From Octopus vulgaris (Eukaryota): 64,000 bases of DNA. A program made the position numbers and the translations under genes. Under the pieces are notes generated by a model. That model worked only from the letters and a program-made list of their open reading frames with translations, made no database searches and was not told where the DNA came from. Location of the stretch: assembly GCA_951406725.2 (NCBI GenBank), contig OX597814.1, positions 111,910,001-111,974,000 of the forward strand. Reading direction: 5' to 3'. Positions 6,805 through 40,363 of the stretch are shown piece after piece (the first letter of the stretch is position 1; each line of letters starts with the position of its first letter).

Positions 6805-6987
6805 TATTTTTATTTGTTTCAGTCATGTTGACTTCGGCCCTGCTGGAGCATCGCCTTTAGTCGAACATATCGACCCCCAAGACTTTTTCTTTGTAAGCTT
6901 AGCACTTATTCTAACTTTCAGTGACGAAAACACACCAGCATCAGCTGTCAAGCGATGGTAGGGGGACAAATACAGGCACACATACAC

Positions 6988-7040
<53 letters not shown>

Positions 7041-7216
7041 TATACATATATACGATGGGCTTCTTTCATTTGCCATCTAACAAATCCACTCACAAAGCTT
7101 CGGTTGGCCCGAGGCTATAGTAGAAGACACTTGCCCAAGGTTCCACGCAGCGGGACTGAACCCGGAACCAAGTGGTTGGTAAGCAAGATTTTTACCACAC
7201 AGCCACTCCTGTGCCT
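6805..7216 (-). mobile_element. SINE family A; its head portion is duplicated at ~7700-7876
   Basis: Same head, body and tail motifs as 115-482. Confidence 0.85.
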
Positions 7217-7217
7217 A

Positions 7218-7602
<385 letters not shown>

Positions 7603-7608
7603 ACTTAC

Positions 7609-7701
<93 letters not shown>

Positions 7702-7880
7702 CATATACATATATACGATGGGCTTCTTTCATTTGCCATCTAACAAATCCACTCACAAAGCTTCGGTTGGCCCGAGGCTATAGTAGAAGACACTTGCCCA
7801 AGGTTCCACGCAGCGGGACTGAACCCGGAACCAAGTGGTTGGTAAGCAAGATTTTTACCACACAGCCACTCCTGTGCCTA

Positions 7881-7974
<94 letters not shown>

Positions 7975-8142
7975 GCGGGATCAGCCATCTGAATGTGGCT
8001 AGGGACAGGGCGGGGTGGTGTTGGTGTTACTGATGCATTTAGCCCCAGGCGACTATAGACGTCACCAGAAGAGCCGACACCATCACGGTGTCCTTGCTAG
8101 CCTGTAAAGGGAGATCAGCCTCCCCGAAGATACGGATGCTAC

Positions 8143-8182
8143 ACACGGACCGGTTTCGAGGTGGTCGCCTCTCGTCAGCGCA
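8143..8182 (-). ncRNA. Type I hammerhead ribozyme (inverted copy)
   Basis: Exact reverse complement of 8582-8622. Confidence 0.88.
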
Positions 8183-8581
8183 TGGCAAGCACCGTTCTTC
8201 GTTGAGGACTTCCTCTACAGGCTAGAAATATATAGATTTTCACAGTAAACACAGTCACTGGCGTCGAAAATCTGTTCGATAACAATAATAAATCTCTAAG
8301 CGAGGTATAAACAGTAACTGCTCTGTATCGGCTCTTCTGGTGACGTCTATAGTCGCCTGGGGCTAAATGCATCAGTAACACCCCCACCACCCCGCCCTGT
8401 CCCTAGCCACATTCAGATGGCTGATCCCGCTTATATTACAGAGCAGTTACTGTTTATACCTCGCTTAGAGATTTATTATTGTTATCGAACAGATTTTCGA
8501 CGCCAGTGACTGTGTTTACTGTGAAAATCTATATATTTCTAGCCTGTAGAGGAAGTCCCTCAACGAAGAACGGTGCTTGCC

Positions 8582-8622
8582 ATGCGCTGACGAGAGGCGA
8601 CCACCTCGAAACCGGTCCGTGT
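8582..8622 (+). ncRNA. Type I hammerhead ribozyme
   Basis: ATGCG-CTGACGA-GAGG cgacca CCTC-GAAA-CCGG-TC-CGTGT: intact CUGANGA/GAAA core, 4-bp helix II, palindromic ACCGGT helix III, GUC cleavage triplet, helix I AUGCG/CGUGU that extends into a long stem. Confidence 0.9.
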
Positions 8623-8839
8623 GTAGCATCCGTATCTTCGGGGAGGCTGATCTCCCTTTACAGGCTAGCAAGGACACCGTGATGGTGTCGGCTCTTCTGG
8701 TGACGTCTATAGTCGCCTGGGGCTAAATGCATCAGTAACACCCCCACCACCCCGCCCTGTCCCTAGCCACATTCAGATGGCTGATCCCGCTTATATTACT
8801 GAGCAGTTACTGTTTATACCTCGCTTAGAGATTTATTAT

Positions 8840-8937
<98 letters not shown>

Positions 8938-9810
8938 CCCCTCTTTTCTATCTGGAATGAGGACCCAGTACTGTAGTAGCTTAGGTTTCAAGAGTCCACA
9001 TTATTTCAATATTCTGCTAGAGATCTGCGAAGTGTCAACGTGGAGGTATTCAATGAATGGTTGAGCCTATTTTTATTTGAGATACCGAGTGAATCCACAG
9101 CGCGACAAGAGACTCAAACGAAGAAGAGCAGCTCCGTCCAACTCCTTACTTCACCAGAAACGATTCATGAGAGGTGCCTATAATTTTTTGAGTGCAAAGA
9201 ATACGAGAGGAACATTTGGAGACCTGTTACAACTATAAAAACTGTTATCAGTTTGACCCTGTAATGGCCCTAGGTTTGGATTTCGTATGAAGAATACTAG
9301 ACCTTAAATTAGGCCAGAGTATATTTTTAACCACTAGCCTTAGGTGGATTAGGAATTAATGAGTTTCAAAGATATTGCGTACAATTACTGGTTTACTAAT
9401 TACGTGTCTGCCAGCTCGCCGCGGTCGAGATTAATAACCAGATGAACGTAACTGGGTGCAACTGCAAATGTGAGATGGCTATGCAGCAGAAACGTGCGTC
9501 GGACACATTTAGATCAAATATGTTATGTAACTGACTATAGAAATTAAAAAATATGCAGATGTATTTATCTCCGTATTCTTGGATAGGCACTCGGTAAAAT
9601 ATTTATAATCAAGAGAAGCGAATCCAGGATTTTACCCATAGGATGAAGTACATTGGGATTGCTTACCTCGAGTGCTACTTACCAATCAATGCGGTTAGCC
9701 ATAACTTGGGTTATAACTGAGTGCTCGAATGGCACCCATCTGAGTACTTTATCCCTATCTATTCTCTCTCTCTCTTCCTCCCCTTCTCTCTTACACACAC
9801 ACACATACAC

Positions 9811-18227: not shown

Positions 18228-18347
18228 ATGCTTACAGCACCTAGGTTTCCCAAGCGGTCACCCATCTAAGTACTAACTAGGCTCGATGTTGCTTAACTTC
18301 GGTGATCGGACAGGAACCGGTGCTTTCAATATGATATGGCTGTCCGA
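18228..18347 (-). rRNA. 5S rRNA copy (dispersed, probably a pseudogene)
   Basis: Minus strand ...ACAGCCATATCATATTGAAAGCACCGGTTCCTGTCCGATCACCGAAGTTAAGCAACATCGAGCCTAGTTAGTACTTAGATGGGTGACCGCTTGGGAAACCTAGGTGCTGTAAGCAT is a full-length (~120 nt) metazoan 5S with boxes A and C. The 5' end is mismatched to the 3' end and there is no T4 terminator. Confidence 0.92.
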
Positions 18348-36529: not shown

Positions 36530-37333
36530 ATGTCAAGGAACTGGTCTGCAAAGGAGTTGCAATTGTTTGTCCGCGCCTGGAAGATTGCCAAAAGTGACTC
36601 CCCAAACAATATCATTGCAGCGACGCTTAAGAGCAATGATTTCTCCAGGACCACCGCCCAGATAGAGCGAAAGAAACGCGAATTCCTCCGTTCATATGCT
36701 CTAATCAGGCAACACATGGTCACACTGGACATCATACTGGGAGGTGACTGCACCAGGGAAGACCAAAAAGATGGAGAAAGCATCCCGGACCCAACAATAG
36801 ACACAACTGAGAGACCTGCAACCAAGGGAAACAATGGCACATGTCCAGCTCCCAACACAACTGAAGACCAAAGAGGTGCGATGGCCGCGAAAAAGGAAAG
36901 CACCCTAAAATCGACGGAAAACAAGAGGTAAAAGACAAGAAAACTAAAACAAACACTGTCCAGGAAAAACAGAAGAACCCCAGCAAGAGCTACAAGAGCA
37001 AAAGTAGAAGCATCTGCAAATTCTACCTGAAGGGTGACTGCTGGCATGGTGACGATGGTGCAAACTGTCATTTTGCACATCAGAAACCCTGCCAAAACCG
37101 CATGGACACAAGACAAAAATCCCTCCCTCGGGGAGAACAAAAAAAAAAGAAAAATATCACAGAAGGAAAAATGGCGCACTAACTACTCCTGAAAGACGAT
37201 ATGCGGATGTAGTGCGCGGTCCAAAAAAAGTACTTCATAGCCCAACAAATGGCCAGCTTCAACCAGATGTGAGAGGGGCAGCAGCTGAACAGCAATCTTT
37301 TTTGTGCATGGCACAAAAATTGTCCAGCAGCTG
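36530..37333 (+). pseudogene. LINE ORF1 relic: Myb/SANT-like (trihelix) domain plus CCCH zinc finger, two frameshifts in A-runs
   Basis: MSRNWSAKELQLFVRAW...IAATLKSNDFSRTTAQIERKKREFLRSY from ATG 36530; after a frameshift at ~36918, ICKFYLKGDCWHGDDGANCHFAH (37012-37080); after a frameshift at ~37145, RRYADVVRG. Confidence 0.7.
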
Positions 37334-37429
37334 ACCTGGCTACAAACACAAAGCTGGAACTACCAACACATAAGGCCACCACCAACAGATGCAGGATGGC
37401 CACCACAGACACCAACATACACACACCAC

Positions 37430-38710
37430 AAAATATTTTTACTGAACGTAAGAGGGCTGCTGCGCGGCAACTATAAAAGGAAAATCTCATCCCTGAGAGA
37501 CCTTGCGGCATGCAATCAAGCTATATGCATGGCACTCATAGAAACGCATCTTGGACCTGATATAGGGGATGCAGAAATACGCTCAGATAGAAAAGGGAGG
37601 AGCCATGGTGGAGTTGCAATGTACATCCGAGATGACCTCACGCCACAGGTCCTGTTGTCATATTCAAACTCAGTGTGTGACGCTCAAATTGTACACATAA
37701 GACAACTGAATATCGTCATATGTACTACGTATCGTCCACCGGATGTCCCAAATCACACAGGCATATTTGAAGACTGCCTAACAAAAATAGAAGTTCTCAC
37801 CAGCCTGGAACAACACAACAGTGTATTCTACATGGGTGACTTTAACTACATGGGTGACTTCCCCAATGTGGAATGGCCGGGGGGGGGGGGGGGGGCAGAT
37901 GCTCCAGCAGGCACAGACAGAGTCCCTGCTCCATCTCACAAATGCCTCTTTCATGGAGCAAATAGTGCTGCAACCAACAAGGGCAAATAATATACTGGAT
38001 CTCTGCTTCACAAACAATATGAATATTATCCATAATGTTAAAGTGATGCCGACAATGATCTCGGATCACTACATAATAGAGAGCTGTCTATGTATGGACA
38101 CACAGCCTATACGAAGCATCCACAATCTCTCCAAATTAAACTTTCATAAAGCAAATTGGAAGTTTATTGAGAAAGAGATCCTCAAACAGGATTGGCCTAA
38201 ATGTCTCTCCACACCAGACATTGACATGAAACACAAACACTTCATGTCCATAATACAAGCCATATGTGACAAATATGTCCCAGTGTGCAGGGTCAGCACA
38301 CACAAAAACAAAAACAGGATCCCTAGAGAAAGGAAGATTCTTATGAGACGAAGGACAAGGATTGCGAACCGCCTGAGCAAGCACACCTAAAGTGGTGAGA
38401 AGTCTCGGCTCAAGAGAATGCTAATGGAAATTGAGAAAAGTCTGCATCAGTCTCATGAAAGGAGAGAGCAGATAAAGAAGCTTGGGTAATAGAAAATATA
38501 AAGTCAAACCCTAAAGCTTTCTTTAAGTTTGCCAAAGAGACAGCCACAGTGCACCAGAGAATAGGACCTCTCTTCCAAAAAGATGGCTCCCTCACAGGAA
38601 ATCCCACGAGGATAAGTGAAATACTGAACGAACAGTTCCAAAGTGTATTCACTACACTTCTAGAACACTGGCAAGTAAACAACCCAGAATAATTCTTTGC
38701 CACTTTACCT
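37430..38710 (+). pseudogene. LINE ORF2 N-terminus: apurinic-like endonuclease and linker, with frameshifts and stops
   Basis: Motifs LLNVRGL, ALIETHL, RSDR..GGVAMYI, YRPPD, MGDFN (locally duplicated), PTR..NILDL, SDH. G-run frameshift at ~37885; stops at 38388 and ~38690. Confidence 0.9.
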
Positions 38711-40363
38711 GTGGCCAAAGAGGCAAAAATTGAGTACATCAACATTGAAGATGATGATATCACATTGGCCATAGATGAGATTGACACAAACTCAGCTGCT
38801 GGACCTGATGGATTTCCAGCGATCCTTCTCAAATCATGCAAACGAGCCCTTGCAAAACCGCTACAGCTTCTTTTTCAGAGCTTTCTAGCAAGTGGTGAGC
38901 TCCCATTCAAATTGAAAGAGGGGGTAATATGCCCTATCCATACGGGAGAAAGCAGAGCAGATGCTAAAAAGTATAGGCCTATCTCTCTGATCTCACACAT
39001 CAGCAAAGTCATGGAACGAATAGTCCGCAAGAAACTAATCATGTTCCTTGAAGAAAATGACTTGCTGACTGACACCCAGAATGGATTTCGACCAGGTAGA
39101 AGCTGCCTAACACAGCTCATGCAACACTATGACTGGGTGTTAAAACAGCTACTAAATGGCTCAAATGTGGATGTGATACATCTCGACTTGGCAAAAGCCT
39201 TTGAGAAAGTCGACCACGGTATGATTTGTCACAAACTGCGTGGTCTCGGCATAGGCGGAAAATTTGGAGAGTGGCTGCACAACTCCCTAAAAGATAGAAG
39301 GCAGGCAGTTGTGACCAATGGAGCCACCTCCAAGGAAACACAAATAACAAGCGGTGTTCCACAAGGCACTGTCTTGGGGCCACTGGTGTTCATGGTGGCC
39401 CTTTCAGACATGCCCTCAGTTGCTAAGATGGCCACCCTTGCTAGCTATGCAGATGACACAAAAGTCTCCCACACAATACAAAACCATGGAAATATTGCAC
39501 ATCTGCAACAGGAGTTGGATACAATATACAGGTGGGCTGAGGACAACAACATGCAGTTTAACGCAGGTAAGTTCCGGGCCCTGCGCTACCGGCACACAAA
39601 GGTAAACGATATGCAGACTGGATACACTGGCCCGGGAAGAATTGCAATCCCTGAGTCAAAATCAGTACGTGACCTGGGCATTGACATGAGCAATGATGCA
39701 TCTTTCCAAGTGCATATTACTAATCTGGTGATAAAATGCAGACGGCTAGCTGGATGGATTCTCCGAACTTTCAGAACAAGAGAGAAGGAGACACTGATAG
39801 TCCTGTGGAAAACTTTCGTCCTCAGCCGCTTGGACTACTGCTCCCAACTATGGTCACCACACAATATAAAAATAACAGCAGAACTCGAAGCAATTCAAAG
39901 AAGCTACACAAAGAAGATCGTCTCAATGCAACATATCAGCTCCTGGGAAAGACTGAAAGTATTAAAACTCTTCTCCCTAGAGCGAAGGCTGGAGAGATAT
40001 GCGGTGATATACATCTGGAAAACCCTGGAAGGTCTTGTCCCAAACTTTGGCATTCAAAGTTACCCCAACCGCAGAACGGGGCGCCACTGCATGGTGCCAA
40101 AGATTCCAACATCACCATCAAAATACAGGACCAGATACTGCAACAGCTTGGGTTTCAGAGGACCACAGCTCTTTAACATCCTCCCTAAATGCCTGAGAGA
40201 CTTGCATGGTATGGATGTGGGTTTCTTTAAAACTAAATTGGATCTCTTCTTGTCGGGGGTCCCACATGAACCTACCTCACGACAGGAGACACAGATGCGG
40301 GCAGCAGTATCGAACTCCCTTGTTGACCAAGTGCTATGTATCAGAGGTGTATTCACATATTAG
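38711..40363 (+). CDS. Reverse transcriptase domain of CR1-group LINE ORF2 (open 550-aa segment)
   Basis: AGPDGFP, YRPISLISHISKVMERIV, QNGFRPGRSCLTQL, LDLAKAFEKVDH, SGVPQGTVLGP, YADDTK, VRDLGI, LDYCSQLWSP, LFSLERR. Confidence 0.93.
   Translation: MAKEAKIEYINIEDDDITLAIDEIDTNSAAGPDGFPAILLKSCKRALAKPLQLLFQSFLASGELPFKLKEGVICPIHTGESRADAKKYRPISLISHISKVMERIVRKKLIMFLEENDLLTDTQNGFRPGRSCLTQLMQHYDWVLKQLLNGSNVDVIHLDLAKAFEKVDHGMICHKLRGLGIGGKFGEWLHNSLKDRRQAVVTNGATSKETQITSGVPQGTVLGPLVFMVALSDMPSVAKMATLASYADDTKVSHTIQNHGNIAHLQQELDTIYRWAEDNNMQFNAGKFRALRYRHTKVNDMQTGYTGPGRIAIPESKSVRDLGIDMSNDASFQVHITNLVIKCRRLAGWILRTFRTREKETLIVLWKTFVLSRLDYCSQLWSPHNIKITAELEAIQRSYTKKIVSMQHISSWERLKVLKLFSLERRLERYAVIYIWKTLEGLVPNFGIQSYPNRRTGRHCMVPKIPTSPSKYRTRYCNSLGFRGPQLFNILPKCLRDLHGMDVGFFKTKLDLFLSGVPHEPTSRQETQMRAAVSNSLVDQVLCIRGVFTY

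Follow-up and report, generated by a model that had tools for sequence, protein, structure and literature searches.

Introduction

How does a short repeat come to lie in a microsatellite as two arms set back to back? The question is raised by a 360-nt unit inserted in (TA)n within the window, the 64,000-nt stretch of the Octopus vulgaris genome analyzed here. The initial annotation had proposed that the two ends of a (TA)n break primed reverse transcription at microhomologies on a circular or multimeric RNA, one cDNA going almost exactly once round the circle and the other rolling past one turn.

Two kinds of elements are relevant to this question. According to the text of the reports that we consulted, metazoan non-LTR retrozymes have a non-coding unit of 170 to 400 nt with a type I hammerhead, occur as tandem copies and are flanked by target duplications of >4 bp. 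A circRNA template and mobilization by Penelope-like elements (PLEs) have been proposed for them, the link with PLEs being argued from shared ribozymes, co-occurrence and the phylogeny of pLTRs (PMC7229834; bioRxiv 10.64898/2026.07.22.740005). EN+ PLEs are described as inserting as a unit in which an inverted, 5′-truncated copy lies head to head with the other copy and a 30- to 40-bp tail is present at one end, with target duplications of 8 to 10 bp and a bias for microsatellites; non-autonomous multicopy derivatives exist in Chlamys (PMC3846280, PMC8557442). The way in which PLEs make these inverted-plus-tail insertions has been described as undefined (PMC8557442).

Results

Geometry of the insert

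We aligned the insert to its own monomer, with phase 1 placed at position 8328 of the window (Table 1). The alignment bore out the initial description of a left arm made of one inverted, permuted monomer (359 of 360 positions) and of a right arm of 1.42 monomers that starts at a different phase, the two being joined head to head at 8327/8328. The left arm is 358 nt long, being one base short in a CCC run, and carries two substitutions; the right arm measures 513 nt, i.e., 1.425 monomers. Both outer ends are indeed 3′ ends of the hammerhead strand located at AT-rich patches, CTTATA (phase 108) and ATTTATTATT (phase 153), and both adjoin (TA)n. As also noted initially, they lie away from the predicted ribozyme cleavage site, and both arms read through it. 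At the empty site, the (TA)n run falls approximately 43 nt short of the combined length of the two filled runs. The segments 6966-7602 and 7629-9154 form a tandem duplication of approximately 660 bp, which could be genuine or could reflect two haplotypes placed one after the other by the assembly.

Table 1 Features of the insertion locus, in window coordinates
Feature	Position	Strand	Remarks
Tandem duplicate of the flanks (empty site)	6966..7602		Without insert
Left (TA)n target	7917..7969		Flanks the inverted arm
Inverted arm	7970..8327	-	Phases 110 to 360 to 108; 3′ terminus at site A (fixed), phase 108
Predicted hammerhead, copy in inverted arm	8142..8184	-	Core 8148-8178
Head-to-head junction	8325..8330		Overlap of 2-3 nt; both arms 5′-truncated
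Direct arm	8328..8840	+	Phases 1 to 360 to 153; 3′ terminus at site B (fixed), phase 153
Longest (TA)n-like patch of the monomer (7 nt)	8530..8536	+	Phases 203-209; internal control, never a 3′ end
Predicted minimal type I hammerhead	8581..8623	+	Stem I 8581-8586/8618-8623; core 8587-8617; palindromic stem III with 2-nt loop
45-nt tail between sites A and B	8796..8840	+	Terminal on the direct arm only
Right (TA)n target	8843..8891		Flanks the direct arm

A retrozyme-like unit

The hammerhead was recognized by its motif and by the pairing of its stems in 60 distinct variants drawn from related families, and its predicted cleavage falls at 8617/8618 (phase 290/291). The core and stems I and II are kept in the 60 variants, stem I being paired in 56 to 58 of them at each position and position 2 of stem II being A-T in 39 and G-C in 17. 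Stem III is palindromic in 44 of the 60, which we take to suggest dimeric cleavage. The motif search returned 1605 matches, versus 2 in the control. Rfam did not detect the hammerhead at the gathering threshold or at an E value of ≤10. The 360-nt unit folds well (z = -5.3), and its minimum free energy folds do not take the hammerhead form.

Copies are dispersed in the genome, with 757 exact matches to a 21-mer of the repeat, and they are arranged in tandem, the arms reaching 5.6 turns of the unit. The longest ATG frame examined has 30 codons, and no long ORF was present among 150 matches. On sequence grounds, this short non-coding tandem unit with a predicted type I hammerhead and dispersed copies with target duplications fits the non-LTR retrozyme type, since it shares with metazoan members unit size, ribozyme type, tandem copies and duplications of >4 bp. 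In contrast, the published retrozyme reports, in the text consulted, describe no inverted two-arm insertions, paired fixed 3′ ends or tail. The 30-codon open frame (window 8417-8509) runs through the tail, and a homologous ATG is present in families 1, 3, and 4. It is possibly a relic of the start of a PLE ORF; no parent was found, and the short frame used as a query gave no match to a long ORF.

Two fixed outer ends, one of each per insertion

We surveyed the 2.8-Gb genome and took all 40 scored loci of 1693 candidates, a sample biased to full monomers. To these we added a less biased sample of 60 loci obtained with two exact patterns (757 and 489 matches), the first 100 listed matches being used for either pattern; 15 of the 60 loci were set aside as sister-family or tail-only matches. 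After the duplicates L057, L079, and L080 were dropped, 82 non-redundant loci were left, including that of the window.

Permuted ends concentrated at AT-rich patches of the 360-nt circle had been expected. The outer ends proved fixed instead, 130 of 135 of them lying at site A (phases 106 to 113) or site B (phases 152 to 162), whereas the inner (5′) ends were scattered round the unit. Fifty-three loci had two arms, all tail-out: 48 were AB, one was AA, none was BB, and four had an odd end. Among the pairs classified as A or B, the 48/49 proportion of AB has a binomial p value of 9e-14, and the pattern-picked sample alone gave AB in 25 of 28 two-arm loci. The 29 single-arm loci ended at A (17 loci) or B (12 loci). 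The two-arm structure was found again at independent loci and is therefore no chimera of the assembly; the back-to-back geometry is a feature of the whole family, and the insert is one of hundreds of its kind.

At least three homologous sister families, with units of approximately 353 nt, use the homologous A and B sites. In families 3 and 4, 10 of the 12 two-arm loci, from 19 non-redundant loci, were AB, and none was AA or BB. The A site of the sister families is not AT-rich, yet it is used, and phases 116 to 153 of the tail are the part best conserved in these families. One sister retrozyme family is very young, with 1.4% divergence between loci (sister families, L172-L191 and L107-L119). 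A variant search pattern recovered a single older family member. Twenty atypical hammerhead matches followed as partner leads were sister-family copies or unmatched, and the PLE ORFs near them were separate insertions.

Fixed sites A and B with one of each per insertion are the "inverted copy plus tail" signature of PLEs. As in the EN+ PLE unit, an inverted, 5′-truncated copy lies head to head with the other (53/82 loci) and the tail is at one end only (48 AB of 53). The octopus repeat differs in having no ORF, a tail of approximately 45 nt, slightly longer than the published 30 to 40, duplications of 11 to 14 bp, arms that can both span several tandem turns, and no sequence link found to a host PLE. 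A known kind of element, the retrozyme, thus carries a known footprint, that of PLEs.

Evidence that both ends of the break were primed

The initial annotation had attributed the choice of priming sites to microhomology: copying would start wherever the two ends of a (TA)n break annealed to an AT-rich patch of the circular RNA. Most two-arm loci do sit in (TA)n, and both sites are AT-rich in the 360-nt family. However, the best (TA)n match of the monomer (phases 203 to 209) harbored none of the 135 ends. Thirteen loci had informative, non-(TA)n targets, with duplications of 11 to 14 bp. There, the overlap between element and target ranged from 0 to 6 nt, with means of 2.9 at A and 1.2 at B, and sites A and B were retained even where the overlap was zero (2/13 at A, 7/13 at B). 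Since the ends remain fixed at these targets and the A site of the sister families is not AT-rich, the choice of site belongs to the RNA-enzyme pair rather than to microhomology, which moreover does not predict the strict pairing of A with B. We thus consider microhomology as the chooser of sites to be largely refuted and this explanation unlikely; the short overlaps at A may fine-tune the exact base. The cDNA going almost exactly once round is not special either: 5′ ends at phases 100 to 116 were not enriched (5 observed versus 3.7 expected), and no significant pile-up of 5′ ends was seen at whole turns. The duplications of 11 to 14 bp suggest a staggered cut by an endonuclease, not a random break.

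In LINE-1 twin priming, the second target end primes internally, at a variable position determined by annealing, and the result is an inversion with microhomology at the junction. The octopus insertions show a similar inversion and junction microhomology, but both their sites are fixed and their arms overlap in sequence. The junctions have an overlap of 1 to 6 nt in 25 of 48 loci and are blunt in 7. An inverted arm could also be copied from the first arm or arise by snap-back, as proposed for rotifer PLEs (PMC3846280). Such fold-back would account for the single AA palindrome (L077), for the near-identical inner ends of 5 of 17 PLE loci and for the near-equal inner phases, i.e., near-palindromic junctions, in 8 of 48 retrozyme loci (4.1 expected, p = 0.05). 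Most junctions are nevertheless non-palindromic, including that of the window (phases 110 versus 358). In 16 of 43 simple two-arm retrozyme loci, and in four loci of a non-repetitive PLE, each arm has sequence that the other lacks; neither is therefore a copy of the other, and fold-back is excluded as the rule. We regard it as improbable as a general model, and it may apply to a minority of loci. Together with the presence of one A and one B end in 48 of 53 loci, this upholds the initial view that both ends of the break were primed. An assembly chimera, or a rearrangement of satellite DNA after insertion, is a more remote explanation still. Long microsatellites that contain inverted repeats pose problems for assembly, some of the duplicated loci carry many evident errors (L057), and contigs of four sequencing runs over 8078-8436 showed tandem continuity across site A with no listed piece bridging 8327/8328. 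Dozens of independent loci, from four families and an autonomous PLE, nonetheless share fixed ends and target duplications.

A continuous template of more than one unit

Frequent read-through of the cleavage site, expected from the initial proposal, was observed in 116 of 124 arrivals (counted at 290/291), which indicates that a cleaved linear monomer is not the usual template. Of the 67 arms in the less biased sample, 33 crossed the site (counted at 291/292), and 131 of 133 crossings were free of indels. 5′ ends were in slight excess at the cleavage site (5 versus 2.0 expected, uncorrected p = 0.048; uncorrected values for the excess of stops were about 0.02 to 0.05), suggesting that some templates may be cleaved linear RNA. 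At 34 polymorphic sites, mismatches amounted to 1.1% within arms, 1.3% between arms and 42% between loci. The arms of a locus thus share a haplotype and would derive from one RNA molecule or one source. The 53 fully covered loci comprised 32 haplotypes, and units within a locus were homogeneous. Four rare variants are present in every unit of their locus and 109 are found in a single unit, whereas those present in a subset of units occur in both arms (four variants) or in one arm (six); the latter two classes call for heteromultimer templates, for gene conversion or for errors of assembly. The number of haplotypes and the four all-unit variants are as expected if a bottleneck of one monomer preceded rolling copying. 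A test of in-register variants, in which the ancestral state was flawed, gave 8/47 versus 16/112 (p = 0.64). In L041, two rare variants recur with a three-unit period, and in L127 units of two haplotypes are present, which may reflect trimeric or heterodimeric templates or gene conversion.

Read-through, arms of up to 5.6 turns and the shared haplotype indicate that the template was circular or an uncleaved multimer. As to the template, what stands of the initial proposal is an RNA of more than one unit that runs on through the cleavage site. Twin priming at A and B could also have used linear transcripts that read through tandem arrays in the genome and stayed uncleaved, without any circle. 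Consistent with this, variants of L047, L052, and L128 are confined to one unit, in both arms and at equal distance from the 3′ end, the units of L127 are mosaic, and unprocessed RNA is reported to be the main in vitro substrate of a lizard PLE, for which hammerhead cleavage is dispensable (PMC11167929). On the other hand, loci are homogeneous across units despite the diversity of haplotypes and the rare variants that fill whole loci, 5′ truncation would shorten arrays at each generation, yet young copies reach 5 to 6 units, no long master array was seen among the matches listed (first 100 per pattern), and the loci have no common 5′ start. We consider this linear route a real possibility, though not the likelier one. 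As the main template, we lean slightly towards circles over uncleaved linear multimers, and a minority of loci appear to need multimers.

PLEs as candidate enzymes

The insert contains no RT plus GIY-YIG ORF and is not an autonomous PLE. The genome holds many intact PLE ORFs, in a 781-aa family, which we take to be Neptune-like, and in a young 1312-aa family. In the former (L169:781-4481), with many intact copies, an upstream ORF (up to 479 aa open) overlaps the 781-aa RT-GIY-YIG ORF. The latter (L248:1063-4998) has frames of 1310 to 1312 aa that include a long Asn-rich insert resembling those known from rotifer PLEs, and an atypical hammerhead-like motif in its pLTR.

The 1312-aa PLE has the same arrangement of A and B ends, its 53-nt tail lying where its ORF starts. 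Of the 16 loci that were selected for B and had the far end in view, 15 end at A. At one locus (L051:2028-4942, copies L057 and L243), an A arm of the retrozyme lies head to head with a B arm of the 1312-aa PLE, with a 4-nt overlap; the PLE arm is an open, 5′-truncated RT-GIY-YIG frame that ends at its B site. The three near-identical copies lie on one contig with unequal error loads and may be false duplications. The chimera is either a mixed-template insertion or the product of a deletion between two neighboring insertions. No significant match of the tail or sequence homology was found in the 781-aa and 1312-aa families, the two PLE families examined. The 781-aa PLE was rejected as a tail-sharing partner for want of a common tail, and a 25-nt AT-rich match to the 3′ UTR of the 1312-aa PLE (E = 0.025 in a tiny search) was dismissed. 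As homology links the retrozyme to neither PLE, the 1312-aa PLE is, on the evidence of one chimeric locus, a candidate mobilizing partner only.

Discussion

Probably, the A/B-ended head-to-head arms of this 360-nt hammerhead repeat were made by a borrowed PLE RT/GIY-YIG protein acting on one continuous, likely circular RNA. The protein would cut an AT-rich target with a stagger of approximately 12 nt and, plausibly as a dimer, bind the conserved tail of the RNA. Reverse transcription would start at site A from one DNA end and at site B from the other. From there, each cDNA would extend a variable distance through the uncleaved or religated ribozyme site; arms have a median length of approximately 210 nt in the less biased sample. 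The two cDNA ends would then be joined at short microhomologies and the gaps filled, giving the duplication of approximately 12 bp.

The in vitro work on Poseidon PAc, a lizard PLE, offers a close parallel. As reported in the text consulted, its protein, a predicted dimer, cuts and extends both strands of an AT-rich target without a need for homology, reads through the hammerhead and has two internal RT starts flanking the tail (PMC11167929). The octopus repeat shares the two fixed internal starts around a tail, the AT-rich target and hammerhead read-through; that report did not allot one start to each DNA end or use a circular template. PMC11722881, in the text available, adds nothing on insertion geometry. 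A full-text search of freely accessible papers retrieved none that, in the text consulted, reports the PLE signature on a retrozyme or a one-site-per-end rule.

PLE mobilization of animal retrozymes has so far been a hypothesis, and the 360-nt family shows the footprint of a PLE on a retrozyme. The use of each start site once per insertion maps the two in vitro start sites onto the two DNA ends, and the survey of many loci provides population-level evidence that twin priming used two fixed sites along an uninterrupted template of several units. More tentatively, a dimer of the 1312-aa PLE might clamp one circular ribozyme RNA at its tail and conduct two reverse transcriptions round it from the two fixed starts, one per DNA end, in a double rolling-circle target-primed reverse transcription. 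If true, this would explain both the inverted-copy-plus-tail signature of PLEs and the spread of retrozymes by one mechanism. As a 360-nt RNA with known starts and intact candidate enzymes are available in one genome, both the origin of inverted-plus-tail PLE insertions and the mobilization of retrozymes by PLEs can be addressed directly in the published in vitro assay.

Elsewhere in the window, a solitary 5S rRNA gene or pseudogene is present on the minus strand at 18229-18347 (Rfam, 99 bits), and a fragmented LINE on the plus strand at 37289-40363, with an endonuclease-like frame and a 556-aa RT-like frame, as read by eye.
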